Of a DNA stretch of 32,000 nt, positions 5,697 to 32,000 are shown piece by piece. Both the position numbers and the translations under genes were made by a program. The DNA lies in contig CP169074.1 of assembly GCA_041891055.1 (NCBI GenBank), forward strand, positions 1,583,863-1,615,862, written 5' to 3'. Source of the stretch: Halorutilales archaeon Cl-col2-1 (GTDB lineage: Archaea; Halobacteriota; Halobacteria; Halobacteriales; Afararchaeaceae). The notes under the pieces were generated by a model. That model was not told the origin of the DNA and ran no database searches. It saw only the letters and a program-made list of their open reading frames with translations. Numbering within the stretch: position 1 is the stretch's first letter; the number at the start of each line of letters is the position of its first letter.

Positions 5697-5891
5697 TGGG
5701 GTCGGAGGGATTTGAACCCCCGATCGACTGGTCTCCCCGGATACGTCCCTGTTACTCAGTCCTCCAGAGGTTCTTCAACGCCCGGGTTGATCAGACCCAA
5801 GCTCAGTAGACCAGTCTGGAGTTCATCAACGTAACGCGTGAGACGGTATTCCTCTGGAGCCAGTCGCCCTGCCGGACTAGGCCACGACCCC
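5697..5891 (-). tRNA. tRNA-Trp (anticodon CCA) interrupted by a roughly 121-nt intron at the canonical 37/38 position
   Basis: Minus-strand read, 5' part: GGGGTCG-TG-GCCT..GGGC-G-ACTGG-CTCCAGA, then the intron. 3' part: ACCAGT-CGATC-GGGGG-TTCAAAT-CCCTC-CGACCCC-A. The acceptor, D, anticodon and T arms all pair. The mature length is about 74 nt and CCA is not encoded. ORFs 5756..5962 and 5803..6024 overlapping it are spurious. Confidence 0.9.
5751..5835 (-). ncRNA. Box C/D guide RNA embedded in the tRNA-Trp intron
   Basis: Coordinates are given on the plus strand. Box C UGAUGA is at 5823-5828, box D' CUGA at 5803-5806, box C' UGAAGA at 5772-5777 and box D CUGA at 5756-5759. A terminal stem GUUAC/GUAAC closes the C/D pair. 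The 12-nt spacer before box D is complementary to the CUCCAGAG anticodon loop. The spacer before D' is complementary to AGACCAGUC on the 3' side of the anticodon stem. Confidence 0.8.
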
Positions 5892-20726: not shown

Positions 20727-20759
20727 GTTTTCCTCTTTTGTGTTGTGTTTAAGCGTGAA

Positions 20760-20844
20760 TGCGGGGAGCCGGATTTGAACCGGCGAACCCCTACGGGACA
20801 GCGCCCTGAACGCTGCGCCGTTGGCCTAACTTGGCGATCCCCGC
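20760..20844 (-). tRNA. tRNA-Leu (anticodon CAG), class II with a long variable arm
   Basis: Minus strand: GCGGGGATCGCCAAGTTAGGCCAACGGCGCAGCGTTCAGGGCGCTGTCCCGTAGGGGTTCGCCGGTTCAAATCCGGCTCCCCGCA. The cloverleaf pairs, and the anticodon loop is TTCAGGG. Confidence 0.93.
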
Positions 20845-20886
20845 ACTACGTTTATTCAGTTCTACGTCGTTGCGTTGTTGTGTTGT

Positions 20887-23143: not shown

Positions 23144-23226
23144 CGTCGGGAGAGGGATTCGAACCCCCGCGGCGAGAACGCCACAGGATTAGCAATCCTG
23201 CGCCTTAACCACTCGGCCATCCCGAC
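23144..23226 (-). tRNA. tRNA-Ser (anticodon GCU), class II
   Basis: Minus strand: GTCGGGATGGCCGAGTGGTTAAGGCGCAGGATTGCTAATCCTGTGGCGTTCTCGCCGCGGGGGTTCGAATCCCTCTCCCGACG. The anticodon loop is TTGCTAA, and it has a long variable arm. Confidence 0.93.
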
Positions 23227-27658: not shown

Positions 27659-28816
27659 CTACGTCGCGTCAGCCTCGGCTTCTGACTCCATCCCCGCGCT
27701 CACGCTCACCAGGAGACTAGACGCCGCGGCTACGAGGCTCACTCCCGATAGGTAGACGAACATCCCCTGTACACCGACGGCGTCGAAGAGAGTCCCCGCG
27801 AAGACCTGTCCGACGCTCGCTCCGAGTCCGAAGACCGACGCCCAGAGGAGTGTCTGTCCGGTCGACTGGAGCGTCTCGGGAGACAGCCTGTCGGCGAGGT
27901 TTACCGCGGCGAGGTAGAACGACGCGAAGCTGAACCCCGAGAGAATCTGTGCGAGAAGCACGGCGGGAACTGCGTCGGTGAAGCCGTAGACTGCGTACTT
28001 CGCGGCGTAGGCGAGAGCACCTATCACGAGGAAGTACCTGTAGGCGAGACCGAACCGGAGAGCGTAGACGAAGACTCCCGCCTCTACGACGGTGGTTATC
28101 AGCCACGAGACCCCCGTTAAGAAGTCGCCCGCGCCTATCGCTCTCATGTAGACGGAGAAGAAGCTGTTTCCCGAGAGGAGTACGACGCCTATCAGGAAAG
28201 AGGTCAGAAGGAGTGCGGCGAAGTCGGTCTTTCTCACGAGACGCAGAGCATCTGAACTTACATCCGCGAGACGGCTTCCGTCGTTCGCTGGGAGACCCTT
28301 TCCGACTACGACAAGAAGAGCCATGCCGACGAAGTAGACGTAGAAGATCACCGACGAGCCGAGACGTGGTATGACGCCTCCGAGTATCAGACTCCCGACT
28401 CCGAACGCCACGCTTCCGTACGCCCTGACCTGTCCGTATTCGAGACCCGAGTCGAGAACTGACGAGTCGGCTATCGGGACTATCGGCGCGCGGAAGAAGG
28501 CGTAGAAAGCCGTGCCGACGCTTATAACGACGAACGCGTTCGGCAGAGAGTCGGCGAGGGGATAGACTAGGACGAACGCCCCCGTCATAGCCGAAGCCAC
28601 CATCAGAATCTCCCTTCTCGCGCCCTTCCAGTCGGCGATTATTCCCCAGAGAGGCTGTGAAACTAAGCCGACTATCGGCGGAAGAGCACCTATTACCCCC
28701 ATCTCGAACCCCGTGAGACCCGTCTCCTCTAGAAAGACGTTCCGGAAGGTAGCAAACCCGCTAAACGAGACGAAGTAGACGAAGTAGAACATCTTGAAAC
28801 GTGTCGAGTCTCTCAT
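27659..28816 (-). CDS. MFS-type transporter (12-TM-like), substrate unknown
   Basis: 385-aa hydrophobic ORF with two six-helix halves and WGIIADWKGARR-type loop motifs. An alternative start lies at 28792. Confidence 0.7.
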   Translation of the reverse strand: MRDSTRFKMFYFVYFVSFSGFATFRNVFLEETGLTGFEMGVIGALPPIVGLVSQPLWGIIADWKGARREILMVASAMTGAFVLVYPLADSLPNAFVVISVGTAFYAFFRAPIVPIADSSVLDSGLEYGQVRAYGSVAFGVGSLILGGVIPRLGSSVIFYVYFVGMALLVVVGKGLPANDGSRLADVSSDALRLVRKTDFAALLLTSFLIGVVLLSGNSFFSVYMRAIGAGDFLTGVSWLITTVVEAGVFVYALRFGLAYRYFLVIGALAYAAKYAVYGFTDAVPAVLLAQILSGFSFASFYLAAVNLADRLSPETLQSTGQTLLWASVFGLGASVGQVFAGTLFDAVGVQGMFVYLSGVSLVAAASSLLVSVSAGMESEAEADAT

Positions 28817-28856
28817 GTGGGTTTTATTTATGAGGTGGCTTCTGCCACAAAAATGC

Positions 28857-28862
28857 TTTATG
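28857..28862 (+). promoter_or_regulatory. Candidate TATA box (TTTATG) for the downstream membrane-protein gene
   Basis: It ends 24 nt before the ATG at 28887. This supports a near-leaderless transcript and the shorter start. Confidence 0.35.
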
Positions 28863-28886
28863 ACTCCTTCTTATATACTGAGGACG

Positions 28887-29984
28887 ATGTCCTGGTACGC
28901 CTTATCCAACCTCGATGACGCCCTTGACGCCGCGGAGGAGTTCCTACTGCCGTTCGACCTCAGGAAGTGGCTCAAGCTCGCGCTCGTAGCCTTCTTCGTC
29001 GGAGGTGGAGGCGGCTTCTCGACACCCAACACGTCGAACATACCCTCCGAAGGCACCTCGCCCGGTGTGGGAACGGGCGGCGGTCTTCCTACGGGAGAGT
29101 TCGCCGACTTAACCCCGATAATAATAGTGGTTGTCGCGCTTATACTCGGGATTGTACTCTTCTTCGGTGTCATAGGCGGAGTGATGGAGTTCGTCTTCTA
29201 CGACTCGGTCGTGAGGCGAGAGGTCAGGCTCAAGGAGTACTTCTCCGACCGTCTCGGCAAGGGTCTCCGTCTCTTCGGCTTCCGTTTCGGTCTCTCGCTG
29301 ATCTTCCTGCTTCCGTTCATAGCCGTAATCGCGTCTTTCTTCTTAGTGGGAGCCGTCGGACTCGCGGGGATATTCCTCCTCATACCTTTCTTCCTCGTCG
29401 GCTCTCTCGTGACGGGAGTGATACGGATACTCCTACGTGACGCCGTCGTCCCCGTGATGATAGCCGACGACGTCGGCGTGATACAGGGATGGCGGAACAT
29501 CTGGTCCACTCTCAAGTCGGAGTGGAAGCAGTACGGCGTCTACGTCGTAGCGAGATGGCTCCTCAGCCTGGGTCTCGGAATAGGGGTGGCTATAATCTTC
29601 CTACTCGCCCTCGCGGTCATACTAATACCCGTCGGGCTACTCGTCCTGCCTGTCTTCCTCCTCGGACTCGATCTCGGGGGGATTGCCCTTGTTATACTCG
29701 TCCCCGTCGGACTACTCGCCTTCCTTGCGTCCCTCGTCGCCTACGGTCTTATACGTGTCCCCGTCGAGACCTACCTGCGTTACTACGCTCTACTCGTCTT
29801 AGGCGACGCCAACCAAGAGTACGACCTGATACCCGATATGAGACACGAAGACGGAGAAGGAGACGGTGGTGACGACGTCGACGGAGACGGCGACAGTAAC
29901 GACGGTGGCGACGCCGATAGCCAGGAGAATGAAGACGATTACGACGAAGACACCGGTACGGGAGTGACCTCCTCCCCGTCGTAA
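28887..29984 (+). CDS. Uncharacterised polytopic membrane protein with a Gly-rich loop and an Asp/Gly-rich acidic C-terminal tail
   Basis: Same frame as track ORF 28794..29984. The MSWYALSNLDDALDAAEEFLLPF start is preferred because the first 31 codons overlap the MFS start and promoter region. It has multiple TM helices. The tail is HEDGEGDGGDDVDGDGDSNDGGDADSQENEDDYDED. Confidence 0.7.
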   Translation: MSWYALSNLDDALDAAEEFLLPFDLRKWLKLALVAFFVGGGGGFSTPNTSNIPSEGTSPGVGTGGGLPTGEFADLTPIIIVVVALILGIVLFFGVIGGVMEFVFYDSVVRREVRLKEYFSDRLGKGLRLFGFRFGLSLIFLLPFIAVIASFFLVGAVGLAGIFLLIPFFLVGSLVTGVIRILLRDAVVPVMIADDVGVIQGWRNIWSTLKSEWKQYGVYVVARWLLSLGLGIGVAIIFLLALAVILIPVGLLVLPVFLLGLDLGGIALVILVPVGLLAFLASLVAYGLIRVPVETYLRYYALLVLGDANQEYDLIPDMRHEDGEGDGGDDVDGDGDSNDGGDADSQENEDDYDEDTGTGVTSSPS

Positions 29985-30038
29985 ACGACGGGGCTTCCCG
30001 AACCGCACCGCAGCGTTGGGATATTTGCCGGTCTACGG

Positions 30039-31289
30039 TCAGATCTGTTCTTGTGGGGCTACTCTCCCCGTCGATGTGTCGAACAGGCGAACCGATGGCT
30101 GGGCCAGACAGCCGTTACTCCTATCCACAGAGGGATTCGGAGTTACCGTCTTTCGCATATTCTCAGCCGCATTACAGTCACTATTCGCAACCAGTTCACA
30201 CTCATCGCAGACGTACAACCCACGTTCAACACGGTTCGAATCGGCTTTCATGCCACACTCACAGCACGTTATCGACGTAGCCAGTTCGTACTCATCGACC
30301 CGCTCAACCTCAATCCCACGTTCTTCAGCTTTGTACTCGATGTGACTGAGCAGAGTTTCAAACGCCCAGTCATGGAGGCGCTTGTTGCCGTGCCTGCCCC
30401 AGTCTTCATCCTCGCGGATGCTTTTCGGATGGCCAACTGCTATCGTGCCAACATCACGGGCAGCACACTGCTCAACAATGTCTTTCGAGAGAGCGTGCAG
30501 GAAATGCTCTTGTCGCCGGGATTTCTTGCGGCGTGCCCATTCAGCATGGTTGCTGGGGCCGTTCTCACCTTCCGTGTCGTACTCTTCCTGCCGGAAGTAG
30601 TGTGCGTCTTCTTTCAATGTGTTGCCCGGATACAACAGCGTGTGGTCACCGACAGAGACAGCCGCCGTATTGCAGATACCGAGGTCAACACCTGCCGTCT
30701 TTTCACCAGCCGAGTCCTCTGCATCAATGCTGACTTTGCAGACGAAGTGCAGTTCCCACTGCTCGCCGTTCCAGACGATGCGGATCTGCTGTACGTCTTC
30801 TACATTGGTGAGGGATACGTCCGAGCCGGTGTCATATTCGCAGAGAACAAAGTCGGCCCACCCGTCTTTCAGGTTCTTGCCTTTCGACAGTCGAACCTGC
30901 TGGTGTTTCGTATCGAGTTTGAAGCCGTCTTCTTTGAACGTGACCGTGCTACGTGGTCGTTCATCGCCGTCTTTGCGGTAGCCCGGTGGGTTAGCGTCTG
31001 GATTGTCTTGTTCGAACCACGACTGGAAAGCGCCAGCCAATTCTTCGACGATTGCCTGACTTGACTGCGAGTTCAAATCTTTCCAGCACTGTTGGTTCTT
31101 CATGTAGGACTTGAGCGGTCCCTCGTCCGGAATTTCTCCGGTGTGATCCCAGATGCGGCCAGCGATCCACCGAGCAACGTTCCAGATTTTGCTGCCGGAA
31201 CGACTGAGTGAATCGAGGTCACGCACGACACCCTCACGGTCGTTGGTGAGTGTTGCCGTAATGGTGCGTGTCGTGACCAGATTCACCAT
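30039..31289 (-). CDS. tnpB: TnpB (IS200/IS605-family OrfB, IS1341-type; candidate RNA-guided endonuclease)
   Basis: 416 aa counted from MVNLVTTRT. It has RuvC-I GVDLGICNTAAV (D202), a zinc ribbon CCEC...CDEC and RuvC-III NSDCNAAENM (D371). The block WGRHGNKRLHDWAFETLLSHIEYKAEERGIEVERVDE is typical of haloarchaeal TnpB. The track's upstream 28 codons look non-coding. Confidence 0.9.
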   Translation of the reverse strand: MVNLVTTRTITATLTNDREGVVRDLDSLSRSGSKIWNVARWIAGRIWDHTGEIPDEGPLKSYMKNQQCWKDLNSQSSQAIVEELAGAFQSWFEQDNPDANPPGYRKDGDERPRSTVTFKEDGFKLDTKHQQVRLSKGKNLKDGWADFVLCEYDTGSDVSLTNVEDVQQIRIVWNGEQWELHFVCKVSIDAEDSAGEKTAGVDLGICNTAAVSVGDHTLLYPGNTLKEDAHYFRQEEYDTEGENGPSNHAEWARRKKSRRQEHFLHALSKDIVEQCAARDVGTIAVGHPKSIREDEDWGRHGNKRLHDWAFETLLSHIEYKAEERGIEVERVDEYELATSITCCECGMKADSNRVERGLYVCDECELVANSDCNAAENMRKTVTPNPSVDRSNGCLAQPSVRLFDTSTGRVAPQEQI

Positions 31290-31400
31290 ACATAGACTAT
31301 GACAGTAGAGTGAGTTAATGGCTGTGACTTGGCGTGGAATATCCAGCCAGTAGAAACAGTGTCGGAATCTCACCGAAGTTGACGCGATCCACTCCCGTCC

Positions 31401-31539
31401 CGAGAACTTACGTTCTCGTGTGCACGCGAATCTTCCGATTCGCGAACGTCCTCAGAAATCGAAGATTTCTGATGTGCGAACGAGAGCTTGCTCTCGTTAA
31501 CGCCCTGTTCGGTTCTCGGTTCCGACTAAGCGTCGGAAC
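31401..31539. other. Array of five different perfect stem-loops (7-9 bp stems, 2-5 nt loops)
   Basis: The five stem-loops, in stem-loop-stem form:
- H1, 31401-31418: CGAGAAC-TTAC-GTTCTCG
- H2, 31425-31444: CGCGAATC-TTCC-GATTCGCG
- H3, 31452-31472: TCAGAAATC-GAA-GATTTCTGA
- H4, 31479-31498: AACGAGAGC-TT-GCTCTCGTT
- H5, 31519-31539: GTTCCGAC-TAAGC-GTCGGAAC. Confidence 0.85.
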
Positions 31540-31594
31540 GCTCGTCCCTCACGGAAAGGGCGGGATTCTCTCGCTGTGTCAAGATAGACGTCGA

Positions 31595-32000
31595 CTAGCC
31601 CACGAATCTCGGGTTGTTCGAGAGTAGCCGCGGCGTGTAGAGGCTCTTTCTCGGCATCTCTCCGATCTTCTCGTCTATCTCGTCTCTGAGTTCCTCGACG
31701 GACATCTCCGTTTCGTCGTCTCCCCTGACGCGGAACTCGATCTCTTCGCCCTCGATCTCTCTGTCTCCGACTACTGCGACGTAAGGTACCCAGTCCTGTT
31801 CGGCGGTTCTTATCCTCTTTCCGACGCTCTCGTCCCTGTCGTCTATGTCGACACGTACCCCGTCGAGTTCGTCGGCGAGGCTCTCACAGTACTCGGTGTG
31901 TTCCTCGCCCACGGGTATGAAACGCACCTGTGTCGGCGAGAGCCAGACGGGCATACGTGGGGTTTCGAGTCCGTCGGCGTTTTCGAGTATGGCACCGAAG
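31595..32000 (-). CDS. thrS: Threonyl-tRNA synthetase, C-terminal (anticodon-binding) part; the gene continues beyond the window end
   Basis: The frame is open to 32000 (FGAILENADGLETPRMPVWLSPTQVRFIPV...). The pattern ERF.G.L.E....P.WLAP.QV, then D.R.E..GKRIR......PY..VVGD.E, matches ThrRS. Confidence 0.8.
   Translation of the reverse strand, partial: FGAILENADGLETPRMPVWLSPTQVRFIPVGEEHTEYCESLADELDGVRVDIDDRDESVGKRIRTAEQDWVPYVAVVGDREIEGEEIEFRVRGDDETEMSVEELRDEIDEKIGEMPRKSLYTPRLLSNNPRFVG

Follow-up and report, generated by a model that had tools for sequence, protein, structure and literature searches.

Why should five perfect hairpins stand side by side between thrS, a threonine-tRNA ligase gene, and a tnpB gene in the genome of the Halorutilales archaeon Cl-col2-1? 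The array was described in a first-pass annotation of a stretch of 32,000 nucleotides of contig CP169074.1, which we call the window, and an inverted-repeat search recovered all five hairpins with the reported coordinates, spacing and spacers: hairpin 1 (31401-31418; 7-bp stem, 4-nt loop), hairpin 2 (31425-31444; 8 bp, 4 nt), hairpin 3 (31452-31472; 9 bp, 3 nt), hairpin 4 (31479-31498; 9 bp, 2 nt) and hairpin 5 (31519-31539; 8 bp, 5 nt), every stem being perfectly Watson-Crick. Start-to-start distances among the first four are 24, 27 and 27 nt and their spacers measure 6, 7 and 6 nt, and hairpin 5 starts 20 nt past the end of hairpin 4. When a perfect hairpin is defined by a stem of at least 7 bp and a loop of 2-5 nt, the 32-kb window contains 15 of them, five within these 139 nt, against a background of 0.31 per kb. 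Among 200 first-order Markov random sequences of 32 kb, the maximum number per 139 nt was one (120 sequences), two (79) or three (a single sequence) and never five, which confirms that the array is not random.

Comparison with related copies of the element to which tnpB belongs makes it very probable that the array is not one structure but was built up by insertions nested in the left-end (LE) hairpin of an insertion sequence (IS). The first-pass annotation had excluded repeated units such as those of a miniature inverted-repeat transposable element (MITE). That was wrong: hairpins 1-4 are two diverged copies of one repeated module.

The left end of the host insertion sequence

A scan of one genome per species yielded 33 haloarchaeal loci with relatives of the window TnpB (genera include Natronomonas, Halovenus, Halorientalis and Halorhabdus), with identities to it of 66-92% in 29 of the 33 loci and of 31-58% in the four weakest. 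The tnpB-upstream regions of the window and of 14 related loci were aligned (alignment A1, 15 sequences). All 15 sequences turn alignable exactly at the terminal oligonucleotide CTATCTTGA (31579-31587, minus strand), upstream of which the flanks are unrelated, and this conserved word marks the left IS boundary; it may include the target or the target-adjacent motif (TAM). The sequence common to the related copies spans CTATCTTGA (31587) to ...GGAGGTCA (~29965), and the flanks diverge past both points. The host is a tnpB-only (IS1341-type) element of the IS200/IS605 family, ~1.62 kb long including a nested insertion of 105 nt, on the minus strand at ~29965-31587. All five hairpins lie in its left end.

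In its simple form this end carries a short hairpin, CCCGCCG-TTCA-CGGCGGG, with a 7-bp stem; it is found in L003 and L027 among the genome loci and in L068 and L131 among the metagenome loci (loci outside the window are cited by such numbers). The simple stem is in all probability the ancestral LE hairpin, the counterpart of the right-end (RE) hairpin. Indeed, the subterminal hairpins at the two ends of the host IS are similar, CCCGCCC/GGGCGGG on the left and CCCCGTCG-TTTA-CGACGGGG on the right (29974-29993, minus strand, by sequence reading), and an RE-like 8-bp stem with a UUCA or UUUA tetraloop has been described for such elements (PMC4615843). The window's basal stem, CCCGCC(C/G)...(G/C)GGCGGG, which lies ~23 nt from the left terminus, is the same feature as the LE hairpin of the IS200/IS605 family (IS608/ISDra2 paradigm; PMC4615843). 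Known ends of this family have one hairpin, whereas in the window the loop and the 3' arm hold 157 nt of extra hairpin-bearing DNA; the earlier remark that five hairpins are abnormal for such an end was therefore correct, the family's own LE hairpin being a single stem.

Read on the minus strand, in the sense of the IS, the layers can be told apart. The 5' arm of the basal hairpin, CCCGCCC (31558-31564), pairs with GGGCGGG in typical copies. In the window it is followed by a 52-nt piece carrying hairpin 5, which occupies the basal loop (31506-31557), and by GGGCG (31501-31505), with which the original 3' arm begins. Then comes the 105-nt insertion with hairpins 1-4 (31396-31500), which separates GGGCG from the last two G's of the arm, the insertion target being GGGCG^GG (the caret marks the insertion point here and below). 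In alignment A1 typical copies have AACAGGGCGGGAGTG where the window has AACAGGGCG, the 105 nt and then GGAGTG. BLAST of the tnpB-upstream region against the 33 loci also places the insertion there: 31501-31588 and 31293-31400 match as adjoining blocks, and 31401-31500 is skipped. Hairpins 1-4 are missing from 12 of the 14 related copies in the alignment, all 12 with an intact tnpB, and the full insertion is seen in the window only; at the identical position Halovenus halobia (L005) has a 57-nt version with two hairpins, that is, one module. On the far side of the insertion, GGACGGG (31394-31400), composed of the end of module 2 and the resumed LE sequence, can re-form the 3' arm with one bulged A.

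These comparisons split the first-pass suggestion of an IS200/IS605 left-end structure in two. Its location holds, with the IS boundary at 31587 lying outside the array, whereas the array is composite and does not travel with the IS: the hairpin-5 piece alone is common to most copies, and units of the module 1 type occur independently. Nor is the block an ordinary left end carried by all tnpB copies; the IS ends map outside it, but most copies do without hairpins 1-4. For the annotation of haloarchaeal IS200/IS605 elements this means that the true TnpA hairpin can hide beneath nested modules of some 50 nt.

A diverged module is also present in the LE region of a Halorhabdus amylolytica element (L012:2847-2902) whose TnpB is 73% identical to that of the window. 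Its hairpins are GCGAGAGC/GCTCTCGC and CGAAAAGC/GCTTTTCG and its end is GAGGACG. It is presumably another, independent colonisation of the left end of this IS lineage.

The hairpin-5 piece (TTCCCGTGAGGGACGAGTGTTCCGAC-loop-GTCGGAACCGAGGACCGAACA) is present in the window and in 12 of the 14 related copies, the two without it being L003 and L027. It occurs on 30 haloarchaeal plasmids at 80-94% identity, nearly always at full length. All five cases inspected lie upstream of tnpA or tnpB on the same strand, four of them at a distance of 90-290 nt; the exception, L158, has an IS630 transposase gene between the piece and tnpB, which are ~1.2 kb apart. The piece sits inside two different LE hairpin loops, CCCGCCC...GGGCGGG in window-type flanks and ACCCCCGCC...GGCGGGGGT in ISHvo18-like flanks (sites: window 31506-31557; L063:151-202; L156-L160 around 1801-1852). 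ISHvo18 itself is without it, and both IS lineages that host the piece include members lacking it. It looks like an older nested insertion, or like a module exchanged between IS ends.

A two-hairpin module and its targets

In the IS sense the 105-nt insertion consists of two abutting units. Module 1 (54 nt, TTAACGAGAGCAAGCTCTCGTTCGCACATCAGAAATCTTCGATTTCTGAGGACG; 31447-31500, minus strand) carries hairpins 4 and 3 and follows GGGCG as TT-AACGAGAGC-AA-GCTCTCGTT-CGCACA-TCAGAAATC-TTC-GATTTCTGA-GGACG. Module 2 (51 nt, TTCGCGAATCGGAAGATTCGCGTGCACACGAGAACGTAAGTTCTCGGGACG; 31396-31446, minus strand) carries hairpins 2 and 1 and reads TT-CGCGAATC-GGAA-GATTCGCG-TGCACA-CGAGAAC-GTAA-GTTCTCG-GGACG, after which the left end continues with GGAGTG. 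The layout is TT(G/A/C)AC, hairpin A, a spacer YGCACA(Y), hairpin B and GGACG, and the length over the family is 51-57 nt. The same two-hairpin architecture, present twice with different hairpin sequences, accounts both for the regular 24-27-nt spacing and for the observation that each hairpin is different.

Module 1 is identical at 54 of 54 positions to a copy in L101 that has unrelated flanks, and it differs from the copies in L045 and L119 in the 3-nt loop only. Identity in unrelated flanks is what an element that was mobile until recently leaves behind. A covariance model built from 114 distinct module copies (model R1) scored module 1 at 75.6 bits (E 4e-18). Module 2 is a diverged member of the family, an assignment that rests on its architecture and not on its score: its TT stands directly after the GGACG of module 1, its spacer reads TGCACAC, it ends in GGGACG and the LE sequence resumes at GGAGTG. 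In the rest of the 32-kb window nothing scored with R1 apart from a plus-strand match on hairpins 2 and 3 (24.9 bits), which was rejected as an artefact of the palindromic hairpin 3; it is without the module termini.

A metagenome scan with hairpin 3 and its 3' flank (CAGAAATCNNNGATTTCTGRGGACG) as the pattern, by which hairpin B is fixed by selection, returned at least 120 stretches, and hypersaline samples were the source of every one; many of these stretches are copies of larger module-carrying repeats and are not independent, the relevant count being ~30 contexts and not 120. In the full matches CAGAAATCNNNGATTTCTGRGGACG is preceded by the spacer (GTTCGCACAC, or GTGCAGCCCAT in a subtype), by a second perfect hairpin and by (C)GTT(G/A/C)AC. 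One hundred instances were parsed; they gave modules of 54-57 nt, in ~30 distinct flanking contexts among the matches listed, with the left-flank consensus c-G-G-C-G^ and no consensus in the right flank. Searching the loci with R1 added many more diverged members that have other hairpin sequences, including that of hairpin B, and the same layout, as well as tandem and head-to-head dimers. Tandem dimers occur in L130 and L131, and head-to-head modules in L036, where they abut, and in Natronomonas pharaonis PL131, where 21 nt separate a forward copy from an inverted one. The 3' end of the module, G(G/A)GGACG^, resembles the target cGGCG^, and tandem junctions read GGACG^TT. In a minor subfamily the left flank is GGTG and the right end GATG, which fits the same rule that the target resembles the element end. 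Together, these comparisons show the module to behave as a non-coding, apparently non-autonomous mobile element of haloarchaea that inserts directly 3' of cGGCG.

The contexts are varied. The LE arm occupied in the window is also occupied in L005, L103 and L142, and the short LE hairpin in L067, L068 and L131; other modules sit in the RE hairpin of ISHvo18-like elements and in other palindrome-bearing repeats. Some interrupt coding sequences (CDSs). Two different GGCG sites are used in the region of tnpB encoding the GVDLGVN motif (GVDLG^VN; L073:166-236 and L112:2651-2721), in our reading the RuvC motif that holds the catalytic Asp. The module is also found in the N-terminal region of tnpB (L034:1600-1670) and, judged by eye only, in a gene resembling another type of transposase (L074:1861-1931 and L126; ...DPTA^TFLHQLTEKH...). 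The modules that interrupt CDSs are 56 nt long, a length that breaks the reading frame. A viral contig scan and a phage BLAST search found no module.

BLAST against plasmids gave 31 records with the module, most of them from different haloarchaeal genera, and in none of them is there an annotated feature under the match. The modules are thus widespread in haloarchaea yet unannotated in these 31 records; this abundant family of tiny mobile elements with a defined target is represented in the model organisms Haloferax volcanii, Hfx. mediterranei and Natronomonas pharaonis, among others. On plasmid pHV3 of Hfx. volcanii (287,624-287,683; L155:2001-2060) the module interrupts the ISHvo18 RE hairpin (CCCGCG^module...CGCGGG), and the LE hairpin of this element is empty and uninterrupted. 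The ISHvo18 module is located ~45 nt past the tnpB stop codon, where the omega-RNA scaffold is expected to form. The guide RNA used by this TnpB could thereby be altered, and scaffold prediction for such elements is affected by the module.

The modules are repeatedly accompanied by other small repeats that contain palindromes, such as CTGTATCCCCTCCCTACTGCG...GAGGAAGGGGGCTTAGCGCC (L106:4740-4800; L154:2060-2200; many metagenome loci). L106 also has a copy of this repeat without a module (GACGGTA^CTGTATCC), in which the site of that context is empty. We tried the sequences on either side of the module in its commonest context as the ends of a small mobile repeat (SMR) of ~110 bp and rejected them; conservation extends over more than 300 nt, so that this context is a larger, module-bearing repeat.

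Stem covariation, loop flipping and competing explanations

Are the stems maintained as RNA or as DNA? The first-pass annotation had proposed a covariation analysis on homologues, and in an alignment of module copies (alignment A2, the loop being columns 55-57) the stems do covary. Over the 114 copies 97.7% of cells are paired, and 149 cells are changed on both sides compared to 46.7 in shuffles. Hairpin A is 95% paired, with double-sided changes at six of its seven scored pairs (e.g. GC 67/AU 40 and AU 68/UA 35); controls with slid partners are 29-51% paired. In hairpin B the outermost pair is C-G in 78 copies and U-A in 32. The 3-nt loops occur in reverse-complement pairs (TTC 30/GAA 20, TCC 20/GGA 12, TTT 6/AAA 3, TGT 5/ACA 2, TCT 5/AGA 2), also within a single flanking context; one context, for instance, has TGT and ACA only. 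These loop pairs indicate that the palindromes are probably flipped in place, and frequently so. In the template-switch model for hairpins, perfect palindromes and inverted loops are both expected (PMC8794818), and the loop flips in place, the multi-base compensatory changes and the lack of wobble pairs in the stems together point to template switching within the palindrome (PMC8794818). From this pattern we infer that the stems are DNA palindromes kept perfect by arm-to-arm copying and not RNA under selection, so that the covariation, read together with the loop flips, would be a DNA-level phenomenon. The modules would then offer a clean natural example of perfect palindromes that evolve through compensatory stem changes and loop flips.

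The strong covariation of hairpin A could also be cited for a structured non-coding RNA (ncRNA), with the array or module acting as a 5' leader, an antisense regulator of tnpB, an upstream guide scaffold (the second idea of the first-pass annotation) or a small RNA gene that has spread. Very stable folds are predicted: the z-score against dinucleotide shuffles is -4.6 for the minus strand as RNA, -3.5 for the plus strand as DNA and -4.8 for the minus strand of 31385-31575 as DNA. There is a G-T/G-U wobble at the basal pair 16-38, in the given strand, and RNAs derived from RE sequences or from palindrome-associated transposable elements (PATEs) are expressed, with phenotypes, in Halobacterium (PMC4615843). 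We nevertheless regard an ncRNA as improbable. Rfam gave no match overlapping 31374-31594, either at the gathering score or at E <= 10; the presence of both loop orientations in one context would be intolerable for a selected RNA and is expected of a DNA palindrome; wobble pairs are absent from the stems; and modules lie in both orientations to neighbouring genes and inside CDSs. Moreover, a TATA-like ATTAA box seen by inspection ~30 nt upstream of the tnpB start is downstream of the array.

The same folds bear on a second alternative, in which the whole five-hairpin block is an integral, elaborate left end, a platform for TnpA binding or for regulation, which evolved in situ and on which the IS depends. 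In the minimum-free-energy folds, both RNA and DNA, an outer stem CCCGCCC/GGGaCGGG closes the entire array, which joins it to the LE stem in one multibranch structure; the block does not reach beyond the IS left end, and its hairpin-5 piece is conserved in most copies. This alternative is quite improbable and is largely refuted by the pattern of presence and absence, namely the 12 of 14 copies that keep an intact tnpB with hairpins 1-4 missing, to which L003 and L027 add copies without even hairpin 5. A platform built in place would also not leave module 1, 100% identical, in an unrelated context, nor its family in the ~30 contexts among the matches listed, CDSs included.

It is very improbable that the four extra hairpins arose locally, as de novo palindromes produced by template switching or duplication within the left end. 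Such switching can make perfect hairpins and invert loops (PMC8794818), the hairpin words CGAGAAC and GAATCGCG resemble nearby LE sequence, and module 2 has no close copy elsewhere in the loci examined; against this, module 1 is identical to copies in unrelated flanks down to its non-palindromic ends and spacer, and spacer and termini are conserved over ~30 contexts among the matches listed. Least probable of all is a termination or stability module in the thrS 3' untranslated region (UTR), or a set of palindromic operators, both of which the first-pass annotation had considered: the array does share the strand of thrS and begin ~55 nt past its stop, and perfect palindromes are typical of operators, but the IS boundary (31587) falls between that stop (31595) and the array, which therefore came with or into the IS, the array has no T-tracts (as had been noted), the four palindromes differ in sequence and would not all be read by one protein, and the same modules stand at dozens of unrelated loci. 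With nested insertions as the preferred reading a false lead is removed, the array being neither a new RNA nor an operator battery.

Mobilisation, related elements and neighbouring features

How might two modules have come to lie in one hairpin arm? A first module would insert 3' of GGCG, here at GGGCG^GG in the 3' arm, and its own 3' end, GGACG, would re-create the target, which would let a second copy land behind the first and give tandem or head-to-head dimers. This re-creation of the target would account for the pair in the window and for those in L130 and L131. Mobilisation may occur in trans, through single-stranded DNA and by an HUH/Y1 (TnpA-like) enzyme; we hold this tentatively, as a guess somewhat short of even chances, because the modules end in hairpins and lack inverted repeats, their end resembles their target, and they are constantly associated with IS200/IS605 elements. 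Arm-to-arm copying by template switching would keep the stems flawless and flip the loops. At this locus the array would need no function and have no role for thrS or tnpB. It would lengthen the LE hairpin; ...GGGGACG+GG could nonetheless form pairs with CCCGCCC, leaving a single A bulged. With the array in place, TnpA may recognise this IS copy less well, or not at all.

Several points weigh against this account. Module 2 scores weakly with R1 (14.5 bits, E 0.043), no near-identical copy of it was found among the loci examined, and it could instead be a pair of hairpins that was rearranged or arose locally. Hairpin B being fixed in the metagenome set, its covariation is measurable at the outermost pair only, and many metagenome matches, as copies of larger repeats, do not count as independent insertions. 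The module junctions share a 2-nt CG, which may be a 2-bp target duplication or the target end plus the element end. Insertion contexts (60 nt with the module removed) fold no better than random GGCG sites (Mann-Whitney p = 0.94), and 5 of 30 contexts have the junction at the top of a hairpin, compared to 13% of controls (Fisher p = 0.36), both tests being crude; since they reveal no preference for hairpin tops, we claim a sequence target and not a structural one. A master element was sought among the loci as left halves not followed by hairpin B, and none was found. Finally, we compared the module with the end geometry of IS608-type elements: hairpin A lies 2-5 nt from the left end and hairpins A and B are unlike each other, which departs from that geometry.

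A more ambitious reading is possible, and we consider it doubtful. The modules, perhaps with the hairpin-5 piece, might form a pan-haloarchaeal class of miniature elements that have their own mobilisation mechanism, are targeted to cGGCG and preferentially colonise and disable IS200/IS605 (TnpB) elements. The hits at TnpA-recognition hairpins and in the coding region of the tnpB RuvC motif would in that case mark them as hyperparasites, or as an anti-transposon device exploited by the host, a role of the kind once proposed speculatively for the SMR-A repeats of Haloquadratum.

The closest published elements are the SMR-A of Haloquadratum walsbyi (HqIRS42, HqIRS43 and HqIRS55), which are 103-122 bp long, have inverted terminal repeats (ITRs) of 15/25 to 23/31, make no target duplication and reach up to 54 copies (PMC3119063). 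They insert in the near-terminal palindromes of PATEs and IS605-type transposons (PMC3119063); Dyall-Smith et al. (2011) called their mobilisation "enigmatic" and speculated that they inactivate those transposons (PMC3119063). Our literature search found nothing else on such elements beyond that paper. Like SMR-A, the modules are non-coding, multi-copy and sited in near-terminal palindromes of IS605 type (the 3' arm of the window's left end, the ISHvo18 RE hairpin and the short LE hairpin of L068 and L131). The module unit of 51-57 nt, half as long as SMR-A, is outside the SMR-A size range, into which the 105-nt tandem pair alone falls. SMR-A have prominent ITRs, whereas a single module, when CGTTGAC... 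is compared with the reverse complement CGTCCCC..., has no more than CGT in common between its ends; the ends of the tandem pair in the window match weakly (~10/13), owing to the related hairpins 4 and 1. SMR-A are reported in Haloquadratum, the modules over many haloarchaeal genera. The module words are absent from the supplements of PMC3119063, which list SMR coordinates and not sequences. SMR-A could be module dimers or unrelated.

PATEs, which make no target duplication, resemble the modules in being short and non-coding, in having hairpins and no ITRs, in their link to IS200/IS605 and in size, the terminal-only forms of ISHwa23 and HqIRS46 being 52 bp (PMC3119063). The palindromes of PATEs match IS605-type ends, and the terminal-only forms keep one of them, whereas the module has two (ACGAGAGC... 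and CAGAAATC...), unlike the CCCGCC- and CCCGCG-type hairpins of IS ends. Among the loci we found no left and right module halves split around a core and no full-length parent, as a PATE-type derivation would have it. The modules as PATEs were rejected on the mismatch with IS-end hairpins; as MITEs they were rejected for having no ITRs and at most the 2-nt CG shared at their junctions.

Looser parallels exist in bacteria. The repetitive extragenic palindromes of the REP/BIME/REPIN type, associated with the IS200-like Y1 transposase RAYT, are short dispersed palindromes, often in inverted or tandem pairs, that are thought to be mobilised by HUH Y1 enzymes acting on hairpins. REP units are single imperfect palindromes with a conserved GTAG-type head and are bacterial, whereas the module always consists of two hairpins joined by a defined spacer and bounded by defined ends. 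The small dispersed repeats (SDR elements) of cyanobacteria, hairpin repeats of tens of nt, reportedly nest into one another and into other repeats (Elhai et al., 2008); they belong to a different phylum, have different sequences and no link to IS200/IS605 ends, and the likeness goes no further than resemblance. An analogy between PATEs and REPINs has been drawn before (PMC4615843).

Further features of the host IS bear on its classification. The tnpB CDS (30039-31292, minus strand; 417 aa, from ATG, MVNLV) has the Pfam domains OrfB_IS605 (58.2 bits) and TNB (Cas12f1-like; 60.2 bits) and matches the NCBIfam model guided_TnpB at 170.8 bits against a cut-off of 100. The list of open reading frames (ORFs) has no other IS200-type ORF (tnpA) between 29965 and 31587. 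At the right end a candidate omega-RNA (sotRNA, HgcC-like) region at 29973-30148, minus strand, scores 86.5 bits with Rfam sot0042, just below the gathering score of 88, and 28.4 bits with HgcC (gathering score 50); the sot and HgcC families are the 3' RNAs of IS1341-type elements (PMC4615843). The host IS has no ITRs, and its flanks, GTCGACGT up to one boundary and CTCCCGTA from the other, contain no direct repeat that would represent a target duplication.

On the left side the IS is adjoined by the 3' end of thrS (31595-32000, minus strand), which runs off the window and was identified from the ORF list, Pfam HGTP_anticodon and NCBIfam; its C-terminus best matches threonine-tRNA ligase (PRK03991, E 3.9e-45, partial), and its stop codon is 8 nt from the left IS boundary. 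On the other side, a plus-strand ORF for a DUF7544 protein (28794-29984) ends within the IS right end (29965-29984). Its last six codons (VTSSPS) and stop codon come from IS sequence, and the insertion therefore replaced the original 3' end or stop of that gene.

Elsewhere in the window three tRNA genes were called on the minus strand, and for two of them the tools disagree: a 195-nt Rfam match at 5697-5891, probably with an intron and missed by ARAGORN; a tRNA-Leu(CAG) at 20759-20845, called by ARAGORN and not listed in the Rfam scan at gathering score; and a tRNA-Ser(GCT) at 23144-23226, on which Rfam and ARAGORN agree. An L4-Archaeoglobi ribosomal-protein leader (Rfam, 68.9 bits; gathering score 34.5) lies at 2336-2429 on the minus strand, upstream of the minus-strand ORFs at 156-2778, which we assume to form a ribosomal-protein operon.

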